Assembly (NCBI RefSeq): GCF_051307035.1
Contig: NZ_CP195536.1
Location: 1,380,001-1,412,000, forward strand
DNA length: 32,000 bases
Direction of reading: 5' to 3'
DNA from: Psychrobacter sp. DM4
GTDB lineage: Bacteria; Pseudomonadota; Gammaproteobacteria; Pseudomonadales; Moraxellaceae
The translations under genes were made by a program, and so were the position numbers. Each line of letters opens with the position of its first letter. The first letter of the stretch is position 1. This document shows, one piece after another, positions 4,130 through 32,000 of the stretch. The notes under the pieces were generated by a model, which saw nothing but the letters and a program-made list of their open reading frames with translations, was not told the origin of the DNA and ran no database searches.

Positions 4130-4342
4130 CACTCAGTGTATGATTTGCAAATCATGGCTTATCATAGCGATAACAAAATACGTAAAGCTCTGTGTATCTA
4201 ACCATCACCTATAATTGTTTATATGAAACATTGTTTAGTATTCATGATTAACGTATATTGACCAAATATTTTAAAAAAGAACATTTTGAATAGTAGAGAT
4301 TTTAGTTGGTTTGCCAGTACTATAGAGAGAGGTAAGGTCACT

Positions 4343-6256: not shown

Positions 6257-7896
6257 TTTCCACTTATGAATGGAAGCCAGCTAATGGTCTTATATTAGAA
6301 CCTAATGCTATGGCTGTAGTTACATCCACTAAAAAATGTTATGCATTGACCGCAGGACCTGGTGCTGGAAAAACTGAAATGTTAGCACAAAGAGCTGACT
6401 TTCTTCTAAAGACACAAGCTTGTCGATATCCTAAAAGAATATTAGCAATATCTTTTAAAGTCGATGCTAGCAAAAATTTAAAAGAAAGGGTCATAAAACG
6501 TTGCGGTAGTAGTCTAGCCACAAGGTTTGATAGTTATACCTTTCATGCGTTTGCTAAAAAAATTATTGACCGTTTTAGAATAGTTTTAACTGGTCAAGAA
6601 GCGCTAGATTTTGACTATCAAATTGGTGAAAGAAGGGTTCACCGGAAGCAGATAACTTTTAATGACTTAGTTCCATTTGCCATTACTATTTTAGAAAGCT
6701 CAGAGATAGTAAGAAATATAATTAAGAGCACATATACTGATGTTTTCCTCGATGAATTTCAGGATTGCACTACTTTACAATATAAACTTATTAAGCTGGC
6801 TTTCTTAAATACTAGCGTTCGAATAGTATCAGTAGGTGATAGCAAGCAAAGAATAATGGGTTGGGCTGGCGCTCTTGAAGGTATATTTAAGTACTATACT
6901 GATGATTTTTCAGCTATTTCATTAGTTTTATATAGAAACTTTCGCTCTAAGCCTAGATTGCTTAGATTACAAAATGAAATTATACGCATTCTTGAACCAG
7001 ACTCGGTAATGCCTGAAGCTTTGATTGCTGGTAATGAAGGTGAGGTTTCCATACAGTCATTTGCTGATGCAAAGCTTGAAGCTACATACTTAGCAAGTAA
7101 AATACAGCATTGGCTTCAAGTAGAGAAAATTCCTGCTTCTGAGATAGCTATTCTTGTATCTAAACAGATAGACTTATATGCTTGGAGCTTAATGAATGAG
7201 TTGAATACCCTAAATATACCTTTTCGTAATGAACAGCAATTACAGGATTTAAGCAGTGAGCCTATAGCTCAATTATTTGTTGACTTTTTAATGTGTATTT
7301 ATAGCCCCAATGAGCCCGATTCTTGGACAAGACTCAACGAAACAATATCACTCTTTGATAATGAGAACCAATCCAGTCAGACTTTAGAAATAAGCAGATA
7401 CATTCAAAATGAATGGAGACTTTTTAAGTCAACTAAAGACTACTCAAAATGGTGGGAAAACGTTCGTTTTTTATTGAAGACTTTAGGAGTTCAAAGATTA
7501 ATAACATTATCTCCATCTTATGAGTCAACTGATTATCTGTATAAGCTCATTATCGATTTTAAGAATGAAATTGAAAGGACAATGATATCAGCATCAAACT
7601 TAATTAAAGCATTACTCAGTTTTTCTGGAGATGACGCTATTAGACTGCTAACAATTCATAAAAGTAAAGGTTTGGAGTTTGATACAGTCGTTATTATGGC
7701 TGTTGAGCAAGAGATATTTTTTGGAAATGTAAATGATGAAAGATGTGCTTTCTTTGTAGGAGTTTCACGAGCTAAACAAAGATTACTTTTGACACATGTA
7801 AGTAGACGTGAAGTTCCTCCTAGTCATTTTAAAAGATGGGATGTACGGAGAACACCACATCATGAGTTCTTAAGTTACTGTAGATTAGTATATTAG
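6253..7896 (+). CDS. gajB: UvrD/PcrA/Rep-type superfamily-1 helicase, Gabija GajB-like
   Basis: Helicase motifs: AGPGAGKTEML (I), DEFQD (II), RNFRS (IV), IHKSKGLEFDTVVI (V), VGVSRAK (VI). Its start overlaps the upstream stop codon (ATGA at 6253-6256). Confidence 0.75.
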   Translation: MISTYEWKPANGLILEPNAMAVVTSTKKCYALTAGPGAGKTEMLAQRADFLLKTQACRYPKRILAISFKVDASKNLKERVIKRCGSSLATRFDSYTFHAFAKKIIDRFRIVLTGQEALDFDYQIGERRVHRKQITFNDLVPFAITILESSEIVRNIIKSTYTDVFLDEFQDCTTLQYKLIKLAFLNTSVRIVSVGDSKQRIMGWAGALEGIFKYYTDDFSAISLVLYRNFRSKPRLLRLQNEIIRILEPDSVMPEALIAGNEGEVSIQSFADAKLEATYLASKIQHWLQVEKIPASEIAILVSKQIDLYAWSLMNELNTLNIPFRNEQQLQDLSSEPIAQLFVDFLMCIYSPNEPDSWTRLNETISLFDNENQSSQTLEISRYIQNEWRLFKSTKDYSKWWENVRFLLKTLGVQRLITLSPSYESTDYLYKLIIDFKNEIERTMISASNLIKALLSFSGDDAIRLLTIHKSKGLEFDTVVIMAVEQEIFFGNVNDERCAFFVGVSRAKQRLLLTHVSRREVPPSHFKRWDVRRTPHHEFLSYCRLVY

Positions 7897-7916
7897 ACGT
7901 ATACCCCAGCATAATC

Positions 7917-7982
7917 AGCTATTTAAGCCCTAAAACGTATTAATAGACTACTGAAAACAGACCCCTAAGATGGAACCACTTA
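7917..7982 (+). repeat. copy A of a ~66-bp direct repeat (partner at 11944-12008)
   Basis: AGCTATTTAAGCCCTAAAACGTATTAATAGACTACTGAAAACAGAC...ATGGAACCACTTA aligns with the partner at roughly 80% identity by eye, with one indel. Confidence 0.55.
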
Positions 7983-8358
7983 GAAAACTGTAACACTTGT
8001 AGGATTTTTCTCGATGCAAAACATTAAAAAACAGACCACAATATCGAGCCTAGACTTTAATAATCTACGCAAACTCATGGATGCCTTAATTAATCTAAAA
8101 AAATTGATAATCTGGATTCTCTTGATGCATATTACAGCTTTGAATGGCAAGAAGATGCTAATGAGATAATTGATGGTATCAATAAGTATGTAGAGCAAAC
8201 GTTAGCTAGCCTAGAGGTAGAGAGCTACCAAAATTCTCACTGTAGTCTGATCTCTTTGAGAATATATCTACAGGATTTAAGGGTACAATAGATGGAATCA
8301 CTAACGATGCCATTTTAACGAATGATGATAATGAAAAATTCACTTGGCTACCATTGAC

Positions 8359-8382
8359 GAGCGCATCCCAGATTCTGTGTAA
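8359..8382. repeat. solo terminal-inverted-repeat-like sequence, same family as 10504 and 19824
   Basis: GAGCGCATCCCAGATTCTGTGTAA compares with GAGACCATCCCAGATTCTGTGTAA at 10504. Confidence 0.45.
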
Positions 8383-8740
8383 CTGCTATTTAGATTTGTA
8401 ACTATCCCCTAAAATAGCAAAGCTCTTCTTTGTACATGTTTTGCCGACGTGTATAACTGCGCGATAGTGCTTGTCTGTTTGATTTGTTTTCTATGAATAC
8501 AGCTGAGACCCATATATATAGCATTGCTAATTTGATACTCGTTGTCGAGAAAATTTTGGTAAAACGATGCTAATGCTTCGTAAAATCACACCTAAACATT
8601 GTCAGATATTAGAGATGTAATGCTGCAAAGCTTTTTTGAGTACGCTTATAATCATAGAATGTTATTCTACTAATTGATATCGCGCGCGTGGGTAAAATAG
8701 AATTATGCCGCCAACGGCACAACCTACAAGGATCTAACAT

Positions 8741-9900: not shown

Positions 9901-9971
9901 ACACTAAATGACGCAGGAACGTATTCTGTTTTTAGAGCGTCTATTGCTCCTCTGAATTTTATTGAGTATAC
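9901..9971 (+). repeat. copy 1 of a 71-bp direct repeat
   Basis: ACACTAAATGACGCAGGAACGTATTCTGTTTTTAGAGCGTCTATTGCTCCTCTGAATTTTATTGAGTATAC matches 10258-10328 at 70/71. Confidence 0.8.
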
Positions 9972-10257
9972 ATAGATGCATATTTTGCTAATTTACATAA
10001 TGTACAAGCATTGCGAGCACTACATTTTAATTTGATAAAGTCGCTTTTTTCTACACCATAATAATAATATTTACAATTAAAACAGAGGTTTGCGGATAGA
10101 ATCATAGTTGTACAGAGTTTGAAAAGTCCTTAGTCGGTAGGAATATTACCGCAGCTTGGTAGGAGTTTGTTCACGGCTATATCTTATAAGTGTGCTCTCT
10201 AGAATCTTGTAAACCTTTCGTGCGTATTCAGCGTTTAATTATCATTTGTACGCTATC

Positions 10258-10328
10258 ACACTAAATGACGCAGGAACGTATTCTGTTTTTAGAGCGTCTA
10301 TTGCTCTTCTGAATTTTATTGAGTATAC
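10258..10328 (+). repeat. copy 2 of the 71-bp direct repeat
   Basis: It has one mismatch to 9901-9971. A third partial copy (AAAAAGTATTAAAAACACTAAATGACGCA) is at about 9398-9427. Confidence 0.8.
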
Positions 10329-10503
10329 CTATGGCTAACCAATCAGGTGCTTTCATTGGTTCGGTTCCCTAGTGAGGACTTGAATCTTTGGCTGTGAGCT
10401 AATGGTATTAAGGTTTCAACTTGCTGAGATAGCCACAGTGTACTTCATGATGTACTTACCATAGATATTCTATCTATGATCGGTGCGCTAGTGAGGACTT
10501 GAA

Positions 10504-10571
10504 GAGACCATCCCAGATTCTGTGTAACTGACGTTTAGATTAAATACTTACACAAAATTTAGGAAGGTCTC
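10504..10571. mobile_element. 68-bp MITE-like element or empty IS ends
   Basis: The 24-nt inverted termini are GAGACCATCCCAGATTCTGTGTAA and the reverse complement of TTACACAAAATTTAGGAAGGTCTC. There is no coding capacity. Confidence 0.5.
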
Positions 10572-11778: not shown

Positions 11779-11943
11779 AGCTACATTTATATCCGGGTGG
11801 TGGTTCAAAAAGTAGGCTGGAAAAAAACAGGCTGAGAAATTGATAAATAGTGAAATGCAAATGACACTATACATCAAATGCCCAGCCTGTCTAAGTGACA
11901 ATATAAAGAAAAATGGTTTCAAAAGCTATACCCTAGCGGAACT

Positions 11944-12008
11944 AGCTATTTAACCCTTCAAACTTATTATCAGACTACTTAAAACAGACTTTAATATGGA
12001 ACCATTTA
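11944..12008 (+). repeat. copy B of the ~66-bp direct repeat (partner at 7917-7982)
   Basis: AGCTATTTAACCCTTCAAACTTATTATCAGACTACTTAAAACAGAC...ATGGAACCATTTA lies about 190 bp upstream of the serine recombinase gene. Confidence 0.55.
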
Positions 12009-12196
12009 TAACAGACTTTTGGATTATAGGACAGGTTACTACGCTTTTTCCCTATCATTAGCCTATACCCAAAACATAAAACCTCTAAACAATAACTTAT
12101 CTATCATTAGACTTGTTTATATTATTAAATGATAGTAATATCTTGCTATTATCAATGGACATTAATTATTAAGTATAAATGATAAAAAGAGGCGTT

Positions 12197-12787
12197 ATGA
12201 CTGTTCGTATTTATGTGAGAGCCAGCACTAAGGATCAAGACGCTAAGAGAGCCTTGTCTAACTTGATTAGCTTTAGCCAAAGCTATGATGATAACCATGT
12301 TGAGTACGTTGAGCATTTCAGTGGTACGAAGCTTGATAGGCCAGTATTAGCTAAGCTATTAAAGGACGCTGATCAAGGCGATATTCTGCTGGTTGAAAGC
12401 GTGGACAGATTAAGCAGGCTATCTCAAGATGATTTTGCAATTCTAAAGCAGCGTATTAAAGACAAGGGCTTGCGATTGGTGGTGGCCGATCTACCAACCA
12501 CGCATACGGTAAGTAAGGGCATGACAGGTGACATCCTTAGAGTCATTAACGATATGCTAATCGATTTACTAGCGACGATGGCAAAGCTTGATAACGACAA
12601 GCGCAGAGAGCGTATTAAGCAGGGGTTGGCGAACAGTGGTTATAAGCCCACTGGTAAGAAGCCTAATACAACGAAACACAATCGTATTAAAGAATTAGCC
12701 AGTCAAAACAATATGACAAAAGAGGAGATCGCTAAGGCGGTTGGTGTTGGGGTAGCTACGGTTTATCGGGTGTTAAAGCAGGGCTAG
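12197..12787 (+). CDS. serine recombinase (resolvase/invertase family)
   Basis: The catalytic N-terminus is RIYVRASTKDQD, followed by VESVDRLSR and a C-terminal HTH IAKAVGVGVATVYRVL. The start was set at ATG 12197 after AAGAGG. Confidence 0.85.
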   Translation: MTVRIYVRASTKDQDAKRALSNLISFSQSYDDNHVEYVEHFSGTKLDRPVLAKLLKDADQGDILLVESVDRLSRLSQDDFAILKQRIKDKGLRLVVADLPTTHTVSKGMTGDILRVINDMLIDLLATMAKLDNDKRRERIKQGLANSGYKPTGKKPNTTKHNRIKELASQNNMTKEEIAKAVGVGVATVYRVLKQG

Positions 12788-19808: not shown

Positions 19809-19823
19809 TGTAAGCTTAATAAT

Positions 19824-19897
19824 GGAGAGCATCCTATATTCTGTGTAACAGCTATGTGGCTTTCATCAATAATTACACAAAATGTAGGATGCTCTCC
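19824..19897. mobile_element. 74-bp MITE-like element, same family as 10504-10571
   Basis: The inverted termini are GGAGAGCATCCTATATTCTGTGTAA and the reverse complement of TTACACAAAATGTAGGATGCTCTCC. Confidence 0.5.
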
Positions 19898-19970: not shown

Positions 19971-20642
19971 TTAGACTTGAGCTAATACTTTTTGTATAGC
20001 TAAAACAAAACCAGTTTTAAATAATGTTCGACCAACTTCATCTTTAATTGCACCATACTTTGATACAGTCCAGCCTAGCTTATTAATTTTCTCTTCCTTA
20101 ATAGCATCCTGTAGGGCTTCAATATCACTATCTAACAGCATCCCACTTAATGAAGGTAATACTTGCACAACTTGTGAATTTTGATTTATAGGAGCTATCT
20201 TATTAGGACGCATATCTATGTTCACCTCAATGTTCTGTTTAAGGATGCGATTTTCTGACTTTAATTTATTTTTTTCTGCAATAATTTGACCAAAAACAGC
20301 TCGCATTGCAGGGTCAGACAGATATTTTAATAACTCCATATCTGATGCGACATCATATTTCCTAGATTGAGGAGAGGGTGGTTTTTTCATGGTAGTATTG
20401 GCTTTAGTTGCCCAAGCGTCAATCAGAAGCCTGTAGTGACTACCTGACTTATTACGAATGCTAACAGTGCTGATACCACCACTAGCTTTCGACAGTCTTC
20501 CAATATGAGCAATAGAATAATCGTGCTCATCTTTATTAAATTCAGTTTCTAGTAAAGTATTCAGATTGTCTAACGAATCTTTCGTACGTTGACTTTTACC
20601 TTCCTTTAAATCATCTAAAATTATGTCGATATTGATATCCAT
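19971..20642 (-). CDS. 223-aa accessory protein of the recombinase trio (TnpC-like position; possibly GmtX-type)
   Basis: It is the third gene of the operon, 24 nt after the 861-aa gene, with a strong GAGAGGAG RBS. It has a coiled-coil-like centre (AEKNKLKSENRILKQNIE) and no catalytic motif that I recognise. Confidence 0.55.
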   Translation of the reverse strand: MDINIDIILDDLKEGKSQRTKDSLDNLNTLLETEFNKDEHDYSIAHIGRLSKASGGISTVSIRNKSGSHYRLLIDAWATKANTTMKKPPSPQSRKYDVASDMELLKYLSDPAMRAVFGQIIAEKNKLKSENRILKQNIEVNIDMRPNKIAPINQNSQVVQVLPSLSGMLLDSDIEALQDAIKEEKINKLGWTVSKYGAIKDEVGRTLFKTGFVLAIQKVLAQV

Positions 20643-20665
20643 AAGATATTTCTCCTCTCATTTAC

Positions 20666-23251
20666 TTAGGTTAGGGATTTAATATTGATATAATTAATAG
20701 GCTGCTTAACGGTTTCCTGTAATACACTCATACTGTCATCTAAGAGTTTACTATCTTGCATAAACTCTTCTAACTCAATATAGTTTGCCACTTTACTAAG
20801 GCCATCTAACTTGTCTTTTGAATTAACTTGTAATGCCATTTGTCTAACCATAGCGTTCGCAGCAATAAGTTGCTGATTCTTATTTAAACTTAGAAACGGT
20901 GGCATATAACCCTGACGTATCATCATTCGACTGATAATTTGAGTCATATCTTGAATGATTGAAGTCTTCTTAACATCATCAAGCATATCTGGATAAATTT
21001 CTGCATCATCGCAAATTAAGGATAGTTGTAGCAACTCAGATTTTGTTTCTATAAATCCAATTCTGATATCGTTCTTGGAACCAACTGCTACTATTTTATT
21101 TTTATGATCATCTTTATCCCGTTCTTGCTCAATTTCAACCAAACGATAAATGAGATTGAGAGTTGCAATTAAGTCCTTAGTATACTCATCTGCTTCTAAC
21201 GATTGCTTCTCACGTCGTCGCTGCAATTCTTGTAATTTGTTATGATGAGTAAAAGGCTTACCTTTAGCTTCTGCTTCGTACTTTATTTCCTCAATATTTT
21301 CTATCTCTCCCTCTAGTTCTATAGCTAAATTTGCAGCTTCAGAGGCTTTGTAACTCATAAAGTTCAAGTGTGCAGTGAGTGCTGGTAAGTATTGAGCGTC
21401 AGTGATAAACCAGCGACAGCGAACGCAATTTTCAGGACCATGAGGCACAACTCCGTAAATTTTTCGCGAAACAACACTTGAGTCCTTAATAAGCTCTCCA
21501 CCGTTCCAGCACCCTGCTACAGTTCCAACTTCATCAGATTTAACTGTATTGCCACCAACTAGACATAGACCATGATGTCGTTTTTCCCATCCTATAGGAT
21601 TACGATTAACCAAAGCAGCTTGAATCGAATTATTATCGTGGTAAGCCATTTTACATTCGATCTGACTCATTTCAGCATTCTTAAGAAAAGTTTGAACACT
21701 TTTTTTTGACACATCTTCAAGACGATCTTCCGCCTCAATCATTTTTTCTTTCATGACTGCTGGGGTAAGTTTGGCGTAGTAAATAGTCATAAGTAGGCGT
21801 GAGTGACCTGCTAACAGCTTAGAAACCACTGGCAAAGGTAATTTTGCATCCATGATATAACATGTTATGAGGGAGACTCTAAGGCTATGCAGAGGGAACT
21901 CAGTTTTAGTTTTAGTAGTCTTATAACCCTTACCATAATCGTGAACTAGTTTAAAAAATGTACCATCGGATAATGTGTCTCCTGATAGACGAAGATTATC
22001 TTCAAGTTTAGATAGAAGCTTGTACCAAAGAGTTGGAATTGAGGCATCATTGATTGGTTTGCTCCTATCCTCCAAGTCAGTTGCAGTCGCATCACGCATC
22101 AAAAAACAACTATCATTCATTGCATCAAGATATGATTCAGATACTTTACGTTGTGTATGTTTAAGTGTTAATTCATTACAATCTGTAGGCTTACTGATAG
22201 GATTATATTTTTCTTGCCAATTTCTCAATTTTTCCAACCAATATAATACATCTTCGTTCTGCCATGGAATTTCATAGCCTCGCTCTACTTCATCTATGTT
22301 TTGGTCTGCGGTCTTGTTAGTGCTGATGTATAATCCTGTAGACTCCATTTCCATTACATTATTTTTAAACTGACGAAAAACTCCTTTTTTATAATTTCTA
22401 TATGCAAATGAATGCTTAGTATTTCTTATCCATTTGCCATTTTCATAACGCATAGTATCTGCTTCACCTGAGTCCAACATCCTAACTTGATAAGTTCGAA
22501 GAGGCAGATGTAATTTGATGAATAAGCACATTGCGACAACAGGTGACCAAATTTCATAGATAATAATATTTTGCTTGTCTTTTCTAATATTTCTACTACG
22601 CCATATACAGTCGTTATCATTATTATCAATAAGTTTCTGTTCAACTTCAAACCAATTACTATTAGACACTCGTCCTTCATGCGTCAATTTTTCATGTGCC
22701 CATATCCAGTCTTTAAAATCACCCCTAGGTTCAGGGCATAAAATATTGCGAAGGTCGCATATATAACGATAGGGTAAAGGGTTATAAACAGATTCAGTAT
22801 ATTGTTTTTTTCTCTGTTGCTTCTCGAAGGGGTTCGTATATAGCTTAATGACAGACCCATTATCATCTTCTTCACTAAAATGCTCTGTCAACAACCATTC
22901 AATAAAATCAAAAATATGATTCATTAATACTACAGTGGATGAATTATCTGAGCGTTTGGTATTTTCAAATATTGAAGTCTTAAAATCATCAGTTGAGATT
23001 TGCCAACCATTCTGCTTGGCTTCAAAGAATGTAACTATGTCTGACGCCCAAAGTGCATTAGAAGTTAAATAGACGTCAAAAAATATACACAAAGCGTCTA
23101 ATTTAGTGTGTTGCGATGTGTCCTGAGCATTCATCCATTCTTCTGCAAATTCACGCCACGATTCCCAAGCCTTACCATGCCTTTTCGTCAGCCATCCAAG
23201 AGTGAGGTCACTAGTTCTGCCATCGTATTTAGCTTGTACAGTTGCTTTCAT
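20666..23251 (-). CDS. large (861 aa) tyrosine recombinase, second of the trio (Tn554 TnpB-like position; possibly GmtY-type)
   Basis: The candidate catalytic set is R in HLPLRTYQVRML, H-x-x-R in LHSLRVSLI, and H and Y in LAGHSRLLMTIYYAKL. It has long N- and C-terminal extensions. Its start overlaps the upstream gene by 23 nt. Confidence 0.75.
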   Translation of the reverse strand: MKATVQAKYDGRTSDLTLGWLTKRHGKAWESWREFAEEWMNAQDTSQHTKLDALCIFFDVYLTSNALWASDIVTFFEAKQNGWQISTDDFKTSIFENTKRSDNSSTVVLMNHIFDFIEWLLTEHFSEEDDNGSVIKLYTNPFEKQQRKKQYTESVYNPLPYRYICDLRNILCPEPRGDFKDWIWAHEKLTHEGRVSNSNWFEVEQKLIDNNDNDCIWRSRNIRKDKQNIIIYEIWSPVVAMCLFIKLHLPLRTYQVRMLDSGEADTMRYENGKWIRNTKHSFAYRNYKKGVFRQFKNNVMEMESTGLYISTNKTADQNIDEVERGYEIPWQNEDVLYWLEKLRNWQEKYNPISKPTDCNELTLKHTQRKVSESYLDAMNDSCFLMRDATATDLEDRSKPINDASIPTLWYKLLSKLEDNLRLSGDTLSDGTFFKLVHDYGKGYKTTKTKTEFPLHSLRVSLITCYIMDAKLPLPVVSKLLAGHSRLLMTIYYAKLTPAVMKEKMIEAEDRLEDVSKKSVQTFLKNAEMSQIECKMAYHDNNSIQAALVNRNPIGWEKRHHGLCLVGGNTVKSDEVGTVAGCWNGGELIKDSSVVSRKIYGVVPHGPENCVRCRWFITDAQYLPALTAHLNFMSYKASEAANLAIELEGEIENIEEIKYEAEAKGKPFTHHNKLQELQRRREKQSLEADEYTKDLIATLNLIYRLVEIEQERDKDDHKNKIVAVGSKNDIRIGFIETKSELLQLSLICDDAEIYPDMLDDVKKTSIIQDMTQIISRMMIRQGYMPPFLSLNKNQQLIAANAMVRQMALQVNSKDKLDGLSKVANYIELEEFMQDSKLLDDSMSVLQETVKQPINYINIKSLT

Positions 23252-24719
23252 TATTTATCCCTAACCTTGGATTCTTTCCTGTAAATAGTCCACTAGGATC
23301 AATATCATCAAAACCATGGCGCATTAATGCATTCCAGCTCAAGTTATTATTTTGTTTAGAGTCCTCTTTAGAAAGCATAAGTCTTTCTGTAGCATCATTT
23401 AAATCTGCCGTAATTTCGATGGACGTTGGGGTAGTGTAAACAGCTTGCGATTCTATAGATGCATGATGTAAGCACTTCTTAATGACTATCTCTTGTACAC
23501 CTGCGCGACGCAAACGTCTTCCGTAGCTATGACGGTGAGAATGTGGTGATAAACCGTCAGGTTTACTGGGATTAAGACCAATTCGCTTAAGACCTCGATG
23601 ATAACTGTCATGAAAAGCATTTAAAGTATAAGGGTTACCAAGATGACTGTGGTGAAAGCTTACGAAAGCGTAAGGATGATGACGATCAACACTTATTAGA
23701 AGTCGAATATAATCTTGCCAAAGCTTTGCAAATACCTTACCAAAAATTGTAGGGAACCAATGTACTTCAATGTATTCGTCTTTACTATCTGTAACTCTTG
23801 CTTTCCATCCAACACGTTTTTTACCTATTAATTCATTACGGGGACTTAGAGCATATTTTTCTTTTAGGTAAGCAGCTCTAGTGGTCTTTCCAGAGCGTCC
23901 ACGCCACCCATTAGGAGCTTTTCCATCTTCAGGATGATAAATACGAACTTTCACATTATCAGAGTCAAAGGGATCTATAAGAACATCTTCAATCCAAAGG
24001 TGTAAAGCTTCGGACTCTCTTAAACCACCACCGTGTAGAAGTAATAGAATCAGCTGATCACGAATAGCAACCCTAAGGTCTTTTGCACCTCCTAAGCCAT
24101 CAATATAAAAACTTTCGAAATAGTGCTCTGGAAATTCTATCGCTTCTTGTTTTTGCTTACCTAATGAACGTTTACCTTGTACCCTACGAGCATTTCTAGA
24201 GGTGGAATTAATCTGCTTATCTTTAATATGACCTAGAAAATCATACTGATTTTTACGAAACCAAGCTGCGTAATTGAGCCTTTGCGTAACACTATCTGCT
24301 TCAACCATTGGGTTGATTGAATTTAGATTATATTCTTCTACCATCCAATCGGTTAATCTGCTTAAAGCATTTATGTGTAACCTTGCAACCTGCTTACTAC
24401 AAGGTAACCAATATAAGCCTGATGGATCTAAACCTTCTTCATTAATAGTTCCTGTGTACAAGCGACTACTAAATATTTCAAATAAGTTTCCAGGCGACTC
24501 AAAGCCACTTGTATTAGCAGTCATATATTCAATTAGAAGCTGAGTAGCTTTTATATAATTATTGATTGTGGAATGACTCTTACCATCTCTTTTTAACTTT
24601 AATGCATAGTCCATTAATGGTTTTAAGATTTCATTACTGTCACTAATTAGAACAGGAATCTCTGAATAGACTCCCGAATCATCTTGAATTACTTTTGCCC
24701 TAACTCTGACAGTCTTCAT
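23229..24719 (-). CDS. tyrosine recombinase/integrase (496 aa), first of the trio (Tn554 TnpA-like position; possibly GmtZ-type)
   Basis: The catalytic set is R in GGGLRESEALHL, HSHRHSYG (H-x-x-R), and LHHASIESQAVYT (H...Y). It is the gene closest to the island's right junction. Confidence 0.85.
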   Translation of the reverse strand: MKTVRVRAKVIQDDSGVYSEIPVLISDSNEILKPLMDYALKLKRDGKSHSTINNYIKATQLLIEYMTANTSGFESPGNLFEIFSSRLYTGTINEEGLDPSGLYWLPCSKQVARLHINALSRLTDWMVEEYNLNSINPMVEADSVTQRLNYAAWFRKNQYDFLGHIKDKQINSTSRNARRVQGKRSLGKQKQEAIEFPEHYFESFYIDGLGGAKDLRVAIRDQLILLLLHGGGLRESEALHLWIEDVLIDPFDSDNVKVRIYHPEDGKAPNGWRGRSGKTTRAAYLKEKYALSPRNELIGKKRVGWKARVTDSKDEYIEVHWFPTIFGKVFAKLWQDYIRLLISVDRHHPYAFVSFHHSHLGNPYTLNAFHDSYHRGLKRIGLNPSKPDGLSPHSHRHSYGRRLRRAGVQEIVIKKCLHHASIESQAVYTTPTSIEITADLNDATERLMLSKEDSKQNNNLSWNALMRHGFDDIDPSGLFTGKNPRLGINNESNCTS

Positions 24720-25052: not shown

Positions 25053-25670
25053 CTACCAATGTGGCACGGTAACCTCATCTACCGCATTATTGATACCATA
25101 ACTATTAAACGATCCTTGAGTCTCGTCATCTACCATTTCTTGAATAATAGACAACGCATAGGGTTGATTGTTGCTGATGCTTCGTAAGCTAATATAGGGA
25201 TAGGGTTTATTATCCTGCTTGTGTTTGGCGCAGTGTATCAGCGCCGCATCCAGCGTAATGCCTTTATACTCAGCGAATGCTTCGGCTTGCTTGAGCACGT
25301 TTTTATGGCGGTAGCGTCTGACTATGACGTGCCCTTTGGCTTTGTCACCAACCTCAGCGATGCGCTTCACATGCACGTAGTCGGTTAATCTCTCTAACCA
25401 TTTATCAAGATTAAGGGTTTCTAGATCCTGTTGACTGATAGCTAAAACGCGAAGTTTTAGTCCCAGCTTTGAGGATTTACCTTTTTCATCGAAATGATAA
25501 TCAGGGAAGCTTACCCCTATTGATTTAATGCTATGTACATTGCGAGCTTCAGCCAGTGCAATATGCAACTGAGTAAACAGCTTACTCCAAATAAAATAAG
25601 GCGCTATTTCAGGATCGGGGATGATGGTTATCTCTTGATAATGGGTCAGACTTGAGCGTGAGTCAGTCAT
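25053..25670 (-). CDS. cas6f: Cas6f (Csy4) pre-crRNA endoribonuclease
   Basis: It has Csy4-like landmarks: HYQEITIIPDPE at the N-terminus, IGVSFPD, and the C-terminal VTVPHW. It is 205 aa and is the last gene of the csy operon, next to the leader. Confidence 0.92.
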   Translation of the reverse strand: MTDSRSSLTHYQEITIIPDPEIAPYFIWSKLFTQLHIALAEARNVHSIKSIGVSFPDYHFDEKGKSSKLGLKLRVLAISQQDLETLNLDKWLERLTDYVHVKRIAEVGDKAKGHVIVRRYRHKNVLKQAEAFAEYKGITLDAALIHCAKHKQDNKPYPYISLRSISNNQPYALSIIQEMVDDETQGSFNSYGINNAVDEVTVPHW

Positions 25671-25673
25671 GTA

Positions 25674-26693
25674 TTACTCCTTACCACTAGCACCAAAGAC
25701 GCCGCCACGGATCAGTACGCCCATGACATAATGTTGTTGTTCAACCTCAGGTATTTTGTCTTGTAACACCCAGCTATCGAACAAGCTATAAAAATCCATA
25801 TTATCTTTTGGTTGACGAAACGCCGTACCCAAAGTAGTTACCGCACCATATGGTTCAATAGCAATGGGAAACTGGGCATCAGGATACCAGTTGTCTATAG
25901 TACGAATGGCATTACTAACCTTTTGGGAGTGCATGCCAGCTTTGTCATTGACGGTATAAAGTATTTTACTTTTAGTCTTGCCCGTATCAAGGACTAGCTC
26001 TTGTGAGGGGTAGACCTCTTGACCATAGCCCATAACTGCGGAAGCTTTGACATAGAGTATGATAAAGGCGCTGCCATCAAGCCCTTGTTCAATAAGGCTG
26101 GCAAGTTGATTTAGATCATCACTACTCTTGGAACTACCATCAAAGTCATGCATTGATATAGATTTTGCATCAAAATTAAGACTGTGTTCTTTTTCACCTA
26201 CTTTGCAGCTAACTTCAACCTTTACATGCTCAGCACCAACACGGTTACGCCATAACCAACGAGCGTTTGCGATGTTAGTGGCATAACGACGAGCCAACTC
26301 ACTCACGCCTTGAGTCTCGATGTAGCTTTGCACAGCAGCTACTAACGCTTTCTGGTAATCTTGATCGTTACAGACACTTGGCTTACCTGTGAATGGCAAT
26401 ACCTTGCAGCTCCAAGTCACTACTAAAGTATCACTGGTTTCATCTAAGGACGCCGAATCTACCGTTTGTAAATTGGCTTTTTGAATCTCGGCATCTAGTT
26501 TGGCAGGATCATTAGCGATAGCCTTTTTCTGACGATTACTAATCGTACCGCGAACCGATTTTTCATTCACTTTGACAGGAATGGTTTTGGTAGTGGTGTT
26601 TTTACTATCGTTTTGAGCAAAAAAGGCATCTGAGATGTCTAAGTTACGCTCAAACGCTAATACTGAGGCGGTTTTTAGGTCGGATTTTGACAT
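25674..26693 (-). CDS. cas7f: Cas7f (Csy3) Cascade backbone subunit
   Basis: It shows close similarity from memory to P. aeruginosa Csy3: TASVLAFERNL, EKSVRGTISNR, DPAKLDA, ANARWLWRNRVGAE, GQEVYPSQELVLD, EQQHYVMGVLIRGGVFG. The start was set at ATG 26693 (MSKSD), with GGAGAA upstream. Confidence 0.95.
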   Translation of the reverse strand: MSKSDLKTASVLAFERNLDISDAFFAQNDSKNTTTKTIPVKVNEKSVRGTISNRQKKAIANDPAKLDAEIQKANLQTVDSASLDETSDTLVVTWSCKVLPFTGKPSVCNDQDYQKALVAAVQSYIETQGVSELARRYATNIANARWLWRNRVGAEHVKVEVSCKVGEKEHSLNFDAKSISMHDFDGSSKSSDDLNQLASLIEQGLDGSAFIILYVKASAVMGYGQEVYPSQELVLDTGKTKSKILYTVNDKAGMHSQKVSNAIRTIDNWYPDAQFPIAIEPYGAVTTLGTAFRQPKDNMDFYSLFDSWVLQDKIPEVEQQHYVMGVLIRGGVFGASGKE

Positions 26694-26789
26694 GTAATTC
26701 TCCATTTTGTTAAAGGTAAGTTTTAGATCGTTTTAGGATAAGGGTGTAAAACTAAATTTTAAAAACTAGGTATTAAAAACATTTACGTA

Positions 26790-27764
26790 CTACGACAAAT
26801 CTTGATCTTGCGTGACTAAATATAGCGATCGATCAGCATCATAGTGATAGCGCCAAAACGCATTGTTAATTGCGTTCTTACCACTGATATCGTTTAGACG
26901 CTGCGGATAGACCCATTTGCCAAGACTATAAATGGCTTCAACATATTGACTGGCATATTCAGGATTACGTACATTTTGCATCACGCTAGCATCGTATAAG
27001 TCGGAGATACCTTGATAGCCTATAGGCATCGGTACGACCCAACCATGACCACTTTTGCGTGACATCGTAGACCATTTAGTATCACCATTTTTCTGTGTCT
27101 CAGGAATATGATGTAGGGCACAAACGTCTATGAGCGCATCTAAGGTAGTGGCTTCAGGATTATCTTGTTTGATCTCATTAATAATATCTACAAAATCATC
27201 TTGAGCATCCATCAATACAAAGGCGGGTAATAACTGCGGCGTCAGCATACTGATGTCATCTTGATCAACATACTGTACGGGATCAAATCGAGCTAAGCCC
27301 TGTACGCTGCCACCTGCCATACGCTGCTGTTGAATCCATTGAGTCGTTTTTTGAATAAGTTGATTTTGCTGCTCAGGCATTAACTCATCATCGGCTAATA
27401 CCTCTACCACAAAACTCACCACTAATCGGCATTTGCCTTCTTCGATAATAGAAGCCGTTTTGCCATCTTTTTTGATAGGATTGCGCGTTTGATTAAAGGT
27501 GTAATTACTATAACTATTCTGACGATATACTTGCGGCTGGCAGTCATAGCAGGCAATGAGCACACCGCCCAATGATACGCCTGCTAGCGCATCATCCTCT
27601 GTCATCTTGCGCGACATAGCATGGAAGCTACCCACAAACCCAGTGATAGCAGGAAAACCATAGGTAATAGGGCTAGATATGCTATTAGCGCCTTCAATCA
27701 TGACTTTTTTGAACATCAAATAGCCTTTGACACCGATACTGACTTCATCAATTACACGGCTCAT
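26790..27764 (-). CDS. cas5f: Cas5f (Csy2)
   Basis: Csy2-like blocks are present: NSISSPITYGFP, FNQTRNPIKKDGKTASIIEEGKCRL, PEATTLDALIDVC. Its start overlaps the cas8f stop (ATGA). Confidence 0.9.
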   Translation of the reverse strand: MSRVIDEVSIGVKGYLMFKKVMIEGANSISSPITYGFPAITGFVGSFHAMSRKMTEDDALAGVSLGGVLIACYDCQPQVYRQNSYSNYTFNQTRNPIKKDGKTASIIEEGKCRLVVSFVVEVLADDELMPEQQNQLIQKTTQWIQQQRMAGGSVQGLARFDPVQYVDQDDISMLTPQLLPAFVLMDAQDDFVDIINEIKQDNPEATTLDALIDVCALHHIPETQKNGDTKWSTMSRKSGHGWVVPMPIGYQGISDLYDASVMQNVRNPEYASQYVEAIYSLGKWVYPQRLNDISGKNAINNAFWRYHYDADRSLYLVTQDQDLS

Positions 27765-29143
27765 AAAAATACCCCTTTGCCTGCGCGCTCATATCGTTTT
27801 ATCATCTCTTCAATTTCACGCTCCCATTCCAAATGTTCAGGATCACCGAAGTCATTGGCTTTTTGTTTAAACTTATCCTGTAGTAGCGCATTTAGCCAAC
27901 GAGCGAAACCATGAATAATTGATTTATGCCAATCATCACCTGATTCACGTTCCGCTTTAAAGTCCTCTTCACCTTCCAAATCAGCACGTTTAGGATCAAG
28001 CCAAAGCATCTGAGCGCGCTCAAGCTCAGAGTCTTTTGACCAGCCAGCAGGCAAGCTATTACGCAGCTCATCGCTCGCTGAAAATATCTGAAACAAAAGC
28101 TCATCAATGGCATGTTTGCGCGCGTCTCTGACATCGATGATATTGCGAGCTTCTTTGACTGATTGAAAGATATCTTCAATCGCTTCGCGTGCATGATATT
28201 GCAGGCCAGCACCAAAAATACTACGGGCAAATTTAGAGAGTCTAAAGCCTTTGGAGTCTTCGATGGTAGGTGGTGGTAGAGAGGGCAGTAGATAGTTACG
28301 ACCGCCTTGTTTACTCATTAATAAACTGACGTTTTGCGGTTTAGTTCCGCCTAACTGTAAAGTTGCTAATTGGTTTAGAGTCACATAAGGTTTTTGTTCA
28401 GCCGTTTTCTTAAAACGATTATCCCTTGCTGCTTTGTTTTCATCTGAAAATTTTAGATGATTGATTCTTTGATAAACTTCATGGGTAAGTACAGAAGGGT
28501 AGAGTGGAACAATAGTAATGTAGTCAAGCCGCTCTAAATCGATATCTTGATACGCATTGGTGACCCATAATGTTTGTTTGTTACGCTCATGAGCACTAGG
28601 TTGAGTAATGATATTTTGTAGAGCCGTCTTAAAACTATGATGATAGTCTTTGGCAATAGAGGACTCACTAGCTAGTGAGGCAATAAAGTCCGTATTGTCC
28701 ACTAAGATAAGATCACGAATTTTAGTCGTCTCATCAACTTCAAAGTCAAAAAAAGCAGCAAGCGGTAGGGCAGCGGCATTACCATTAGCATCGATATAAT
28801 GACTTTCTATTGAATGCGTGCCAACTAGCGTTTCAGAAAGATTTTCTGTAGCTTTAAAGCTAATATTGTCGCCTTTCACATCAGGATGAACCCCTTTTGA
28901 GATATGCGTACCGAAGTTTAGTTGCTTTGCCATACGAGTGGCTGCATCAGGAATCCAACTAGCGACACTGTATTTTTTTTGAGCGTCTGCTAAAGTTGTC
29001 TTTAACTCTGTAACCTTGTCATAGTCATCACTTTCAATCGCTTTTGCGAGCTGCTTTTGCTCTGTTTCAGTTTTCTTATCGTATTGACTGGCTAGAAATG
29101 CTGTAACAGCAGCGCTTGCCAGCTCTTTAGATATATCTGTCAA
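27761..29143 (-). CDS. cas8f: Cas8f (Csy1) large subunit
   Basis: The Csy1-like block LQLGGTKPQNVSLLMSKQGGRNYLLPSLPP is present (compare FGGTKPQNISQL...WLLPSLPP in P. aeruginosa, from memory). It is 460 aa, with a TTG start 6 nt after GGAG. Confidence 0.9.
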   Translation of the reverse strand: MTDISKELASAAVTAFLASQYDKKTETEQKQLAKAIESDDYDKVTELKTTLADAQKKYSVASWIPDAATRMAKQLNFGTHISKGVHPDVKGDNISFKATENLSETLVGTHSIESHYIDANGNAAALPLAAFFDFEVDETTKIRDLILVDNTDFIASLASESSIAKDYHHSFKTALQNIITQPSAHERNKQTLWVTNAYQDIDLERLDYITIVPLYPSVLTHEVYQRINHLKFSDENKAARDNRFKKTAEQKPYVTLNQLATLQLGGTKPQNVSLLMSKQGGRNYLLPSLPPPTIEDSKGFRLSKFARSIFGAGLQYHAREAIEDIFQSVKEARNIIDVRDARKHAIDELLFQIFSASDELRNSLPAGWSKDSELERAQMLWLDPKRADLEGEEDFKAERESGDDWHKSIIHGFARWLNALLQDKFKQKANDFGDPEHLEWEREIEEMIKRYERAGKGVFL

Positions 29144-29214
29144 AATTGACTCCTTTTATAATAAACAAAAGTTAGTAATAAATTTATTTAAGCACAGAAT
29201 GACATTTATGTAAA

Positions 29215-29236
29215 CCATGTTATAACAAGTATAAGG
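29215..29236 (+). promoter_or_regulatory. CC-PAM plus 20-nt partial target of the mini-CRISPR spacer, in the cas8f upstream region
   Basis: The sequence CC|ATGTTATAACAAGTATAAGG compares with psi-spacer ATGTTATAACTAGTATAAAA. That is 17/20 identical, with 10 contiguous PAM-proximal matches. It lies 74-95 nt upstream of the cas8f start and overlaps the palindromic TGTTATAAC (extended -10-like on both strands). On the minus strand it abuts TTTACA (29209-29214). Confidence 0.5.
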
Positions 29237-29338
29237 TATTGACGTATAAAGTAGTTTTAAACGAATAACGATGTTCCTTAATCAACAGCATGGCTTGGGT
29301 GAACAATCATGTTTGTATAAAGGCGCTCTGTTATAATC

Positions 29339-29414
29339 TTATGACAGCGTATAGCTGGCTTAGAAAATGTTATAACTAGTATAAAATTTCACCACCGCAT
29401 AGGTGGCTTATATC
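29339..29414 (+). ncRNA. degenerate mini-CRISPR (psiR1, 20-nt psi-spacer, psiR2): candidate CreR/CreA-like crRNA-like RNA gene
   Basis: psiR1 (29339-29366) is TTATGACAGCGTATAGCTGGCTTAGAAA. It matches the consensus 19/28, keeps the exact CTTAGAAA handle, and preserves the hairpin through a compensatory C-G to G-C swap. The spacer is 29367-29386. psiR2 (29387-29414) is TTTCACCACCGCATAGGTGGCTTATATC, matching 24/28 with an intact hairpin. An extended -10 TGTTATAAT lies at 29329-29337 and a terminator follows directly. The orientation is opposite to the cas genes. Confidence 0.6.
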
Positions 29415-29417
29415 AAA

Positions 29418-29442
29418 AGCACGGTTCACGCCGTGCTTTTTT
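29418..29442. terminator. bidirectional hairpin terminator shared by the mini-CRISPR (+) and cas3 (-)
   Basis: AGCACGG-TTCACG-CCGTGCT is followed by TTTTTT on the + strand and TTTT on the - strand. It lies 12 nt from the cas3 stop. Confidence 0.6.
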
Positions 29443-29453
29443 ATATCTAAAAT

Positions 29454-32000
29454 TTACTGACGAACAAATCCAAAAAACTCATGAAACCTCCAGCCTCGGC
29501 TATTATGAGGCGTAATACGGTCAAGCGAGGCAGAGGAGTAAGTAATGGCAAGCGAGCGCAAGCTTTTATCAGGTTGTAGCTTTTGGATATCTAGCAGTGC
29601 TGTATTTAGCGAAGTGGTTAGCCATGGCTTAATCTGACTGTGAGTAAATTCAAAATCTAGATGCTGTATGACTGAGTTGTGGACAGTAGAGCGAGCTAAG
29701 CCTTTATCAAACACATCTTCTGCGTAATAGGCATCTAATCCTAAGCTTGGCTCATCGGTTTCGTCATCATGTACCATGCGTGGTATCAATAACCAATCCT
29801 CTTGCGGTGCGCCAGCTCGAAAGGGCGTGATCTGTTGCAAATGGGTATGAAAACGATTGGCATCGGCTATATCATCCCAATAGGCATTGACATAGTTGAG
29901 TTTGGGATTATTCAATAAATGACGCATGACTTGATGTTCAAGATCGCTTAAGGTCTCAATCGATTTATTTGAAGAGCTTATAATTCTAGCTCTAGCATCG
30001 ACTTGCTGGAGCTGTTCTTTGGTTAGCAACTCGTTCAGATCATAACTGGCTGGTTTGAATAGTGCAGTCTCAAAACCTGGATGGGTAAATACTGGTCGAC
30101 TACTCGCGTTTTTGAAATAACGAATATTGTATTGCAGTAGTAGGATATTAGGCTCAGAAGCCACTTTGTCAGGACGATGACGCCACACTCGACCAGCTAG
30201 CTGAATAATAGAGCGCATCGACGAGGGTTCTACGATTGCCCAGTCATAATCATGATCACGGCCTACTTCGGCAACAGGTGTCGCCAACACTACAAAAATA
30301 TGTTTTTTGGTAGGGTTAGCCGCTAACGCTTGCTTAATTTCAGGATGATCAGAGAGCGCAATTTTATTGTTGTTACTAGTACTATCACTACGATCTAAAA
30401 TACGATCTAGCTTGTTCTCTAGAGTATTTCTTAGCAGTAAATTTTGTTTGGCGTGATAACACACCAGATGGATAATGGTGTCGTCAGGAATATTTATTAG
30501 ATCAGCCTTAAATAATTGCATGGCAATGTGATTAATATTATTGACGTTAGCAATTCTGACCAGTCCTATACTTACTTGCGACTCTACATCAGACTGAGTG
30601 CATATTTCATGATGATCATCATGCAAGCTGATAGCGCCATCGATTAGTGTTTGTGCTAGCGCATTGTAAAAAGAATTTTCGGTATCCTTGGTATATTTGG
30701 CACAAAAAGGCAGAACTTGCGCTTGCCGTCTGACAGGTTGCTTGGTCAAATACAGCGCCCGCTTTTCACAAAACGCATTGTGCTGAGTCTCAAAAGCTGC
30801 AATATCATCACATTGCTCAGACATCATGGCTTTGGGCTGCTCATCGAACCAGGCACAAACTACTTTTGGTACTGGCTTATTTTGACTTTGGTTAAACAGT
30901 TTGCGTCCCTCCATATAAGCTTCAAACAGTCCCGCTACCAAATCAGGGGTCAAAGTTGCGGAGGACAGTAGAACGCGCGTGCCAAAAATCCCAGCGAGAT
31001 GCACCAAACGCGTGAGCGCTGGCAAGTCCGCTTGGTCAAAATCATCAGGCTCATCTAAGATTAAATCACTACTAAGAAGGCGTAGCATCGGCGCAATGTA
31101 TTTGCCGCCTCGCTTGCATTCGCTCGCTTGAATAATATGATCAACCGTACAGGTTACAACGGGCGCAAATATTAGGTCACGCGCTTTGGCACTAGCGATA
31201 ACAGTACCGAGATTTAACGCCTCAAAGTCTTGATAATCAATGTCGCTGTTTACGATCTCATCTAACAAGTCCTCGCTGGACTCACTACCGAAACTTTCGC
31301 AATCCTCAACAGGTTTATCGTCACCTGTATATTCACCGATAATATTGGCATATTGATTTGATTGACTATCATATGCCATCTCAAACAACTTTCGGTTAGC
31401 GCTACCACCTACCAATATAGCCAGTTGATCGCCTTTTAACTTTAAATCTTTACGAAAGCTTAGACCTGTTTGCAGGGTCAAAATCCGTAAACCTAATGCA
31501 ATGGTAAAACGAGCGCCTTTTTTTGGATCAGCCAAGGCATACATAATACGAGCGTTACCAATCGTCTTACCAGCCCCTGTCGATGCCATATTCACTCCAA
31601 AAAATCCATGTTCTTGGGTGGTCTCTTGTAATGCATAGGCCATCTTAAACGCTTGATTCTGCCATTTAAAACGCTCAACGCCAGTAGGTTTGGCTAGAGG
31701 ATCATGATTTTTTAGAGTTGGCATCTCATTAGCAATAATAGGCAGTGCGCGGCAGAAATGTGCGGTAAAAGCACCCACGCCTAGTAGATGCTCCTCAAGA
31801 GACTGCTTGATAGCCGATTGACCTGCCGTGCGATCAGTGTTGGCTGCTATATGGTCAAACGATCCATTAACTTTCAGACAACGTGCGTCGTCTTGCTTGA
31901 GGCTAGAGTAGTTATGGTCACCCACCATGAGACATAGGCGAGATAAATGCAGTAAAAAAGGGTCGCTAATGGCTTTTTTATTCCTAACCGCTTGCTGACT
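29454..32000 (-). CDS. cas3: Cas3 (type I-F Cas2-3 fusion expected); N-terminal about 230 aa lie outside the window
   Basis: The frame stays open upstream of the ORF-track Met to the window edge (...FLLHLSRLCLMVGDHNYSS, HD-domain-like). Helicase motifs are present: MASTGAGKT (I), ILDEPDDFD (II), SATL (III), QLAGRVWR (VI). It lies immediately upstream of the csy genes. Confidence 0.9.
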   Translation of the reverse strand, partial: SQQAVRNKKAISDPFLLHLSRLCLMVGDHNYSSLKQDDARCLKVNGSFDHIAANTDRTAGQSAIKQSLEEHLLGVGAFTAHFCRALPIIANEMPTLKNHDPLAKPTGVERFKWQNQAFKMAYALQETTQEHGFFGVNMASTGAGKTIGNARIMYALADPKKGARFTIALGLRILTLQTGLSFRKDLKLKGDQLAILVGGSANRKLFEMAYDSQSNQYANIIGEYTGDDKPVEDCESFGSESSEDLLDEIVNSDIDYQDFEALNLGTVIASAKARDLIFAPVVTCTVDHIIQASECKRGGKYIAPMLRLLSSDLILDEPDDFDQADLPALTRLVHLAGIFGTRVLLSSATLTPDLVAGLFEAYMEGRKLFNQSQNKPVPKVVCAWFDEQPKAMMSEQCDDIAAFETQHNAFCEKRALYLTKQPVRRQAQVLPFCAKYTKDTENSFYNALAQTLIDGAISLHDDHHEICTQSDVESQVSIGLVRIANVNNINHIAMQLFKADLINIPDDTIIHLVCYHAKQNLLLRNTLENKLDRILDRSDSTSNNNKIALSDHPEIKQALAANPTKKHIFVVLATPVAEVGRDHDYDWAIVEPSSMRSIIQLAGRVWRHRPDKVASEPNILLLQYNIRYFKNASSRPVFTHPGFETALFKPASYDLNELLTKEQLQQVDARARIISSSNKSIETLSDLEHQVMRHLLNNPKLNYVNAYWDDIADANRFHTHLQQITPFRAGAPQEDWLLIPRMVHDDETDEPSLGLDAYYAEDVFDKGLARSTVHNSVIQHLDFEFTHSQIKPWLTTSLNTALLDIQKLQPDKSLRSLAITYSSASLDRITPHNSRGWRFHEFFGFVRQ

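Follow-up and report, generated by a model that had tools for sequence, protein, structure and literature searches.

Regulatory mini-CRISPRs in cas loci

Degenerate CRISPR units that regulate rather than immunize have been described in two forms. CreR (Cas-regulating RNA) was reported by Liu et al. (bioRxiv 10.1101/2023.03.10.532045), who showed autorepression for types I-B, I-E, and V-A and also listed creA-like elements of type I-F. In CreTA modules, the mini-array provides an antitoxin, CreA, which together with the guide-carrying complex Cascade represses a small toxic RNA, CreT. A type I-F CreTA has been characterized in Acinetobacter sp. WCHA45, where the guide, psiS, is mismatched to its target at positions 6, 11, and 18 (Wang et al. 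2023, PMC10097628). Two further modules, CreTA1 and CreTA2, are known from Pseudomonas aeruginosa, in which a mature 48-nt CreA1 with a 20-nt psiS has been detected (Wang et al. 2026, bioRxiv 10.64898/2026.06.02.729485). Moreover, the main text of Shmakov et al. (2023, bioRxiv 10.1101/2023.03.03.530964) places I-F1 regulatory mini-arrays in the gap between cas3 and cas8, with P. aeruginosa YL84, Acinetobacter, and Moraxella osloensis as examples. For the P. aeruginosa I-F mini-array at this position, Cascade alone represses the target promoter and no interference is triggered; this is the sole precedent found in the literature for Cascade-dependent, Cas3-independent repression of the cleavage-free type. 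The present analysis concerns a mini-array located between cas2-3 and cas8f (csy1) of a type I-F locus in Psychrobacter sp. DM4, contained in a stretch of 32,000 nucleotides (hereafter, the window). This element is probably a toxin-free, CreR-type autorepressor of the csy operon.

The mini-array and its target

The type I-F cas2-3 and csy genes, recognized by profile matches, are all encoded on the minus strand of the window, and the gap between cas2-3 and cas8f spans 310 bp (29144-29453). The mini-array lies inside this gap on the plus strand and is therefore divergent from cas8f and convergent with cas2-3. It is a degenerate repeat-spacer-repeat unit that stands apart from the true CRISPR array (3887-4024, minus strand; repeat CTTCACCACCGCATAGGTGGCTTAGAAA), which is located approx. 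25 kb away. The proximal repeat, psiR1 (29339-29366, TTATGACAGCGTATAGCTGGCTTAGAAA), is followed by the 20-nt guide psiS (29367-29386, ATGTTATAACTAGTATAAAA) and by the degenerate distal repeat psiR2 (29387-29414). In psiR1, a 4-bp hairpin (CAGC-GTATA-GCTG, 29345-29357) precedes an exact 8-nt handle (CTTAGAAA, 29359-29366), and its stem carries a compensatory swap relative to the array repeat, namely CAGC/GCTG for CACC/GGTG, by which C9/G17 became G9/C17. In psiR2, nucleotides 2-24 are those of the array repeat (a 23-nt exact match), and the Cas6f hairpin has been preserved but not the 3' handle; psiR2 also gave the sole Rfam match (CRISPR-DR4, plus strand, E = 0.009, under the gathering score). 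Thus, the proximal repeat retains hairpin and handle and the distal repeat retains its hairpin; both hairpins fold, and the predicted fold of the mini-array transcript consists of these two hairpins and a terminator (z = -3.65). Canonical type I-F arrays consist of identical 28-nt repeats and 32-nt spacers with a leader ahead. Here, by contrast, neither repeat is identical to the other or to the array repeat, the spacer measures 20 nt, and no similarity to the leader was seen at the mini-array.

The unit is delimited by signals of its own. An extended -10 element (TGTTATAAT, 29329-29337, plus strand) places the predicted transcription start at approx. 29344, at the foot of the psiR1 hairpin. 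As read off the sequences, a TG(T/C/A)TA(T/G)(A/T)AT motif ends 6-8 nt ahead of the psiR1 stem in most lineages, so transcription should begin at the hairpin. The first approx. 6 nt of psiR1 overlap this promoter and start-site region, and they have presumably drifted because they are used as promoter DNA and not as RNA. At the other end, the terminator scan found a bidirectional intrinsic terminator (29415-29440, both strands) with 11 pairs and a T-run on the plus strand and a hairpin on the minus strand. It is also seen in the fold, is kept in relatives, and serves both the mini-array transcript (plus strand) and cas2-3 (minus strand).

The target of psiS is found in the same gap. It comprises a CC protospacer adjacent motif (PAM; 29215-29216) and the protospacer ATGTTATAACAAGTATAAGG (29217-29236), which together form an operator at 29215-29236 on the plus strand. 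The shortened guide (20 instead of 32 nt) matches this PAM-flanked site only partially, at 17 of 20 positions, with ten contiguous PAM-proximal matches and mismatches at positions 11, 19, and 20. Among 20,000 shuffled versions of psiS tried against any CC site in the gap, one reached 17/20 and three reached a 10-nt seed; the match is comparably rare in seven other lineages by the same test. The pairing of guide and target is therefore far beyond chance. The preliminary description of this DNA had located the mini-array, its -10 element, and the target exactly to the base, and sequence comparison bears out its account of the two repeats as well as of the 17/20 match, the seed, and the PAM. Its plus-strand unit with a terminator also holds, to which the minus-strand orientation of the cas genes and the second role of the terminator, in ending cas2-3, can be added. 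The distance of the site from cas8f, previously given as 74-95 nt, has to be corrected: measured from the TTG start codon at 29143, the distance is 74-93 nt for the target and 72-73 nt for the PAM.

Immediately beyond the PAM, the minus strand carries the predicted cas8f promoter (29186-29214). Its -35 hexamer, TTTACA (29214-29209), directly touches the PAM complement GG on the cas8f strand, and 14 nt separate it from an extended -10 element, TGC TTAAAT (29194-29186). The columns GGTT.A and TG.T..AAT do not change among 10 of the 11 lineages, whereas the 14-nt spacer between them is variable; -35-like hexamers in relatives read TTGATT, TTTACT, TTTATT, or TTGAAA. Such a pattern appears to mark an extended -10 promoter whose two elements are 17 nt apart. 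Transcription would start near 29179, followed by a 36-nt leader that carries the cas8f ribosome-binding site. In the eleventh lineage, L025, the target is located 45 nt from the cas8f start and contains TATAAT on the cas8f strand; the layout differs, and its sequence points to the same gene, cas8f, as the one controlled. A promoter inside the protospacer itself (target positions 2-10, TGnTATAAC, plus strand) was considered and not accepted as evidence: most loci lack the final T, and those that share the motif are close relatives.

As a separate observation, positions 2-10 of target and guide (TGTTATAAC, 29218-29226) resemble an extended -10 element on the guide's own strand and the mini-array promoter at 29329-29337. 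The variable middle base of the two -10-like motifs, which occupy the same positions in L023, L025, and L002, agrees in several loci (T/T in the window, A/A in L023, C/C in L025). This likeness could reflect an origin by duplication or chance among close relatives.

Conservation and covariation

Relatives of Csy1 were collected from genomes, metagenomes, and an exact-protein look-up. A mini-array is found in the same place in 13 related loci (designated here by L and a number), with approx. eight guide (seed) families. Carriers include the closest relative (L023/L024, 87% Csy1 identity), Psychrobacter nivimaris and its allies (L002, L003, L010, L011, L021), P. proteolyticus and FME6 (L001, L008), P. 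urativorans (L004), the loci L012, L013, L014, L027, L025/L026, L016, and L017, and, in the Pasteurellaceae, Phocoenobacter atlanticus (L005). A mini-array is absent upstream of cas8f in eight Csy1 relatives (L006, L007, L009, L015, L018, L019, L020, L022). Among them, the cas3-cas8f gap is readable only in L006, L009, and L015; the gap is missing in L007, the sequences of L018 and L019 begin inside the gene, and those of L020 and L022 are without cas3 upstream.

In all carrier loci, the guide pairs with its own CC-flanked target only. In L023, for instance, seed position 4 is altered in guide and target alike. Pairing with the own target is complete at positions 1-8 (13/13), high at positions 13-17 (11-13 of 13), and low at positions 12 (5/13) and 18 (7/13). 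Every sixth position of an I-F guide is unpaired and not read, as cited in the main text of bioRxiv 10.1101/2023.03.03.530964, and the relaxed positions 12 and 18 fit this rule of I-F Cascade pairing. The repeat hairpins co-vary as well: among 17 repeats, 92.9% of the cells are paired and four of the five pairs show double changes, a result matched by none of 500 shuffles. Guide length ranges from approx. 14 nt (L016) through 20 nt in most loci to approx. 24-25 nt (L025, L017). The preliminary description had proposed a regulatory mini-CRISPR of the CreR/CreA type that guides Cascade, and had named lack of conservation among related I-F gaps as an outcome that would speak against it. That outcome did not occur; the position is kept in 13 loci and both guide-target pairs and hairpins co-vary, which strongly supports the regulatory-guide part of the proposal.

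These data bear on two other explanations. The first is that the element has no function and is either what remains of an ordinary CRISPR array or a spacer that came to target the genome itself by accident, as might be thought from the degeneracy of psiR1 and psiR2 and from the single ordinary 32-nt spacer held by each of the L004, L013, and L014 mini-arrays. However, neutral decay would not keep the handle, the compensated hairpins, the seed pairing, and the PAM, nor would a dedicated promoter and terminator survive it. Moreover, L006, L009, and L015 keep the gap without a mini-array, which shows that the element is open to loss unless it is maintained. A remnant is hardly credible. The second explanation is that the guide acts chiefly on genes at other sites of the genome, in the manner of the Francisella scaRNA, and that the match near cas8f is secondary. 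Short seeds may have several targets, the search covered 32 kb of the genome, and the main text of bioRxiv 10.1101/2023.03.03.530964 leaves targets in trans possible. Yet guide and local target change together in each of the lineages, with the target at a constant position relative to cas8f, and the 32-kb window contains no second CC-flanked site with a seed of at least 7. A mainly trans-acting guide is thus distinctly improbable.

The composition of the mini-array is not fixed in all lineages. L012 and L013/L014 are otherwise near-identical and differ by an extra repeat and an ordinary 32-nt spacer on the promoter side of the regulatory spacer, and the P. urativorans mini-array (L004, approx. 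6740-6870) likewise consists of three repeats. Ordinary units can therefore be added to or removed from the mini-array, with the regulatory spacer remaining in last place. No convincing phage match was found for the ordinary 32-nt spacers of L014 and L004, which are for that reason at most candidate immunity spacers. Copies of psiS borne by phages, comparable to Cracr, were also sought: an exact 20-nt scan of viral contigs gave zero matches, and a 16-nt scan gave 66, none of them in an I-F repeat context. One candidate, L039, in which CT precedes the handle, is unrelated, GC-richer DNA without a repeat hairpin and was rejected as a phage-borne guide. When the gap was compared by blastn with 50,697 phage records, the terminator hairpin alone was matched, in an Acinetobacter phage. 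In L017, a metagenomic relative, the gene beside the mini-array on the cas2-3 side (minus strand, approx. 1-420; start MTDNPLTKKTDISHLV), read by eye, encodes what we take to be a YhcG/DUF1016-type nuclease; its position suggests an insertion between cas2-3 and the mini-array.

CreR or CreTA

Whether the DM4 element is of the CreR or the CreTA type had been regarded as undecidable from sequence; the features described below narrow the choice in favor of CreR. A degenerate creA-type mini-CRISPR with a PAM-flanked partial target is common to both, and the distinguishing element is creT. If the mini-array were a CreA antitoxin, its target would control an unrecognized small toxic RNA in the gap, and the cell would depend on Cascade. 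Such a module would have precedent, as the two bacterial I-F elements that have been dissected by experiment at the cas3-csy1 position (Acinetobacter WCHA45 and P. aeruginosa CreA1/CreA2) are both CreTA, and 92 nt between the target and the mini-array are unexplained, including a 21-codon open reading frame (ORF) that begins at 29271. However, known I-F creT genes sit between the target and csy1 on the csy1 strand, and in DM4 this interval is 70 nt long and already taken up by the promoter motif together with the cas8f leader. When 29120-29460 was scanned, neither strand showed a mini-ORF led by a Shine-Dalgarno sequence or any hairpin except the terminator; there is thus no adjacent creT and no recognizable toxin gene, although a toxin of an unrecognized type is conceivable, in agreement with the earlier remark that 29237-29328 shows no convincing creT-like RNA. 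The 92-nt filler between the target and the mini-array promoter (29237-29328) is not conserved: blastn of 29144-29312 found no match in any relative, and the interval from target to mini-array measures only 25-50 nt in relatives. Two 21-codon ORFs, at 29271 (plus strand) and 29218 (minus strand), were tried as candidates and rejected, as neither has a ribosome-binding site or is conserved; the one at 29271 is absent from the closest relative, too. Together, the abutment of the target on a conserved promoter-like motif that reads into cas8f, the lack of a creT module, and the lack of room for one in relatives favor CreR, and a CreTA module is unlikely.

The probable CreR-type autorepressor builds on direct observations: the anatomy of the mini-array, its conservation, the covariation of guide with target and of the repeat hairpins, and the absence of a creT module. 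Several points nevertheless weigh against this reading. The -10 hexamers (TTAAAT/TTTAAT) are without the usually essential A at the second base and have T or C there. The generic promoter scan missed the cas8f promoter for this reason, so that the assignment, with its non-canonical -10 and no scan call, comes from conservation. The mismatch at position 11 is not among the flipped guide positions, which is likewise the case in the Acinetobacter CreA. An extra stretch of approx. 45-60 nt within 29237-29328, for which relatives have no counterpart, is unexplained. Moreover, an autoregulator was the initial reading of the P. aeruginosa element, which was later shown to guard an overlooked tiny toxin; this reassignment calls for caution, since small toxins are easily missed. 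Finally, transcription starts, RNA processing, Cascade binding, and repression together with its direction are all predictions in DM4.

On the CreR-type reading, the following mechanism may be proposed. The extended -10 promoter would drive transcription from the foot of the psiR1 hairpin. Cas6f would then cut after both repeat hairpins. According to the Cas6f cleavage rule, by which the cut falls after repeat nucleotide 20, the predicted crRNA-like (CRISPR RNA-like) product is a 48-nt RNA (29359-29406, plus strand) composed of the 8-nt handle CUUAGAAA, the 20-nt guide, and the 20-nt psiR2 hairpin. This RNA would assemble with Cas8f, Cas5f, fewer Cas7f subunits, and Cas6f. The shortened Cascade would recognize the CC PAM at 29215-29216 and pair over approx. 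18 nt with 29217-29236, forming an R-loop probably too short to license Cas2-3, and thus it is proposed that the complex remains bound without cutting. Cas8f on the PAM would occlude the adjoining -35 hexamer. As the PAM is placed against the -35 of the cas8f-csy2-csy3-cas6f promoter, bound Cascade is proposed to block RNA polymerase, and the operon would repress itself. By analogy with CreR, repression may ease when canonical crRNAs or anti-CRISPRs draw Cascade off the guide.

A gene between operator and cas8f

In some relatives, a gene of the DUF2188 family stands between the operator/promoter and cas8f, in cas8f orientation. It is present in L001/L008 (74-75% Csy1 identity), approx. 250-480 nt upstream of cas8f (start 7001), and in L016 (60%), approx. 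200-430 nt upstream (start 824). The product is 77 aa long (Pfam E = 5e-21 and 5e-23). Given its position, it would be the first gene under the control of the crRNA-like RNA in two separate lineages. The only link of DUF2188 with defense comes from genomic context. Its product could play the part of CreT in protein form, or it could be an accessory monitored by Cascade. A broader idea, that the operator is a general docking point that places genes under Cascade control beyond cas autoregulation, is rather doubtful; if it were true, the DM4 window would represent the cargo-free ground state of such a circuit.

The cas genes of the locus

The DNA derives from Psychrobacter sp. DM4, and the product of cas8f in the window is 100% identical to the Csy1 of this strain. 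The first gene of the predicted regulated operon, cas8f (csy1; 27761-29143, minus strand), matches TIGR02564 (E = 1.6e-114), and its TTG start at 29143 is preceded by the Shine-Dalgarno sequence AAGGAG (29155-29150). It is followed by csy2, csy3, and cas6f (25053-27764, minus strand; TIGR02565, TIGR02566, and TIGR02563). Cas8f together with the products of csy2, csy3, and cas6f would form the guide-carrying complex, and Cas6f would be the guide-processing enzyme. On the other side of the gap, the 3' part of cas2-3 (Cas3f; 29454-32000, minus strand) matches NCBIfam TIGR02562 (cas3_yersinia, E = 3.8e-224, profile positions 323-1109); its frame is open past the end of the window, with no stop codon up to base 32000.

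A mobile island in the first repeat of the CRISPR array

The true array of this locus has been split by a gamma-mobile-trio (GMT) island of approx. 20.8 kb (4025-24858), which occupies the loop of the hairpin formed by the first I-F CRISPR repeat. The junctions lie on the minus strand at 24874-24859 and 4024-4007, with the loop GCATA(G) at both. The conserved leader is followed by CTTCATCACCGCATAG and then by island DNA starting (G)TTATTACTAGTA, and the remainder of the split repeat, GCATAGGTGGCTTAGAAA, resumes 20.8 kb away. The insertion has thus severed the CRISPR array from its leader and from the cas genes. The genes gmtY, gmtZ, and gmtX are found at 19971-24719. The same island end is present at the same point in the 16th array repeat of Psychrobacter sp. 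4Bb; positions 12116-12135 of L009 were part of this comparison. Relatives of GmtY with 72-79% identity are found in the loops of other GC hairpins (L094-L097). According to the paper describing GMT islands, they insert between short inverted repeats; CRISPR is not mentioned in it.

The island carries a Gabija-like defense pair (4286-7896, plus strand), in which an OLD-family ATPase/TOPRIM protein of 656 aa is directly followed by a UvrD-type helicase of 547 aa. The remaining cargo encodes a resolvase (12179-12787), a cation efflux protein, four dehydrogenases (three Zn-dependent and one short-chain), and a LysR regulator. Segments of 43-74 nt are repeated within the island (8354-8396, 10499-10541, and 19820-19862; 7900-7962 and 11927-11989; 9901-9974 and 10258-10331). 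They border cargo blocks, after the helicase gene, beside the efflux gene, and beyond gmtX, and they may be sites of recombination or module exchange.

Past the two-spacer array, at 3185-3914 on the minus strand, three or four further repeat fragments are found (3185-3210, approx. 3510-3530, and 3760-3787). Each is joined to a TGAG(C/A)GC.GTT.AA-type sequence and to repeated modules of approx. 30-60 nt (families D4, D6, D8, and D11). These fragments look like decayed leftovers of other insertions into repeats.

Comparison with known systems

The kind of element described here is already known, and I-F examples have been published since 2023, including those from Acinetobacter, Moraxella, and P. 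aeruginosa; the understanding of these systems is therefore unchanged by the DM4 locus. What can be compared is how its features are distributed among the described forms. An experimental, toxin-free I-F CreR was not found in the accessible literature. Psychrobacter is not mentioned in the main text of Shmakov et al. (2023).

With the Acinetobacter WCHA45 CreTA, another Moraxellaceae element in the same gap, the DM4 mini-array shares a 20-nt psiS with 17 paired positions and a mismatch at position 11, a divergent psiR1 and a conserved psiR2, and the divergent arrangement of creA and csy1. The WCHA45 gap, in contrast, is approx. 400 bp long and contains, downstream of the target, a conserved mini-ORF of 33 bp that has a Shine-Dalgarno sequence as well as a hairpin at the start codon. 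Its creT promoter is located upstream of the target, so that Cascade acts as a roadblock; none of these features is present in the DM4 gap.

The P. aeruginosa CreTA modules resemble the DM4 element in position, in the logic of orientation, in guide length (20 nt in CreA1, 26 nt in CreA2), and in the 48-nt RNA, which in DM4 is predicted. However, their -35 is found approx. 30 bp past the target, and the unit that it drives consists of a Shine-Dalgarno sequence, a mini-ORF of 15 nt that includes two proline codons, and a hairpin rich in GC. In DM4, the -35 touches the PAM, and the next feature after this promoter is the cas8f ribosome-binding site.

The I-F1 mini-arrays described in the main text of Shmakov et al. 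occupy the same gap in the orientation opposite to cas3, keep the proximal handle, have a degraded distal repeat, and pair, with mismatches at every sixth position, with a CC-flanked target upstream of cas8. Their sequences, as presented there, are unrelated to that of DM4, and their P. aeruginosa example was later reclassified as CreTA.

With CreR, the DM4 element shares a degenerate mini-CRISPR upstream of the effector operon, a shortened guide, and a partial PAM-flanked match next to the cas8 promoter, which is predicted in DM4, as well as the apparent lack of a toxin gene and the predicted autorepression by Cascade. It differs in that the PAM abuts the -35 hexamer without a gap and in that the guide is 20 nt long, against a reported median of approx. 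25 nt for bacterial I-F CreA/CreR. Clade-specific features are the zero-gap geometry of PAM and -35, a guide of 20 nt, and the seeming absence of a toxin. The locus adds a clean and comparatively well-supported example of probable, toxin-free I-F Cas autoregulation in Psychrobacter. The approx. eight orthogonal seeds of the covariation series, combined with the fixed PAM/-35 geometry, could serve as natural orthogonal operator/guide pairs and also as a test case for telling CreR from CreTA by sequence.

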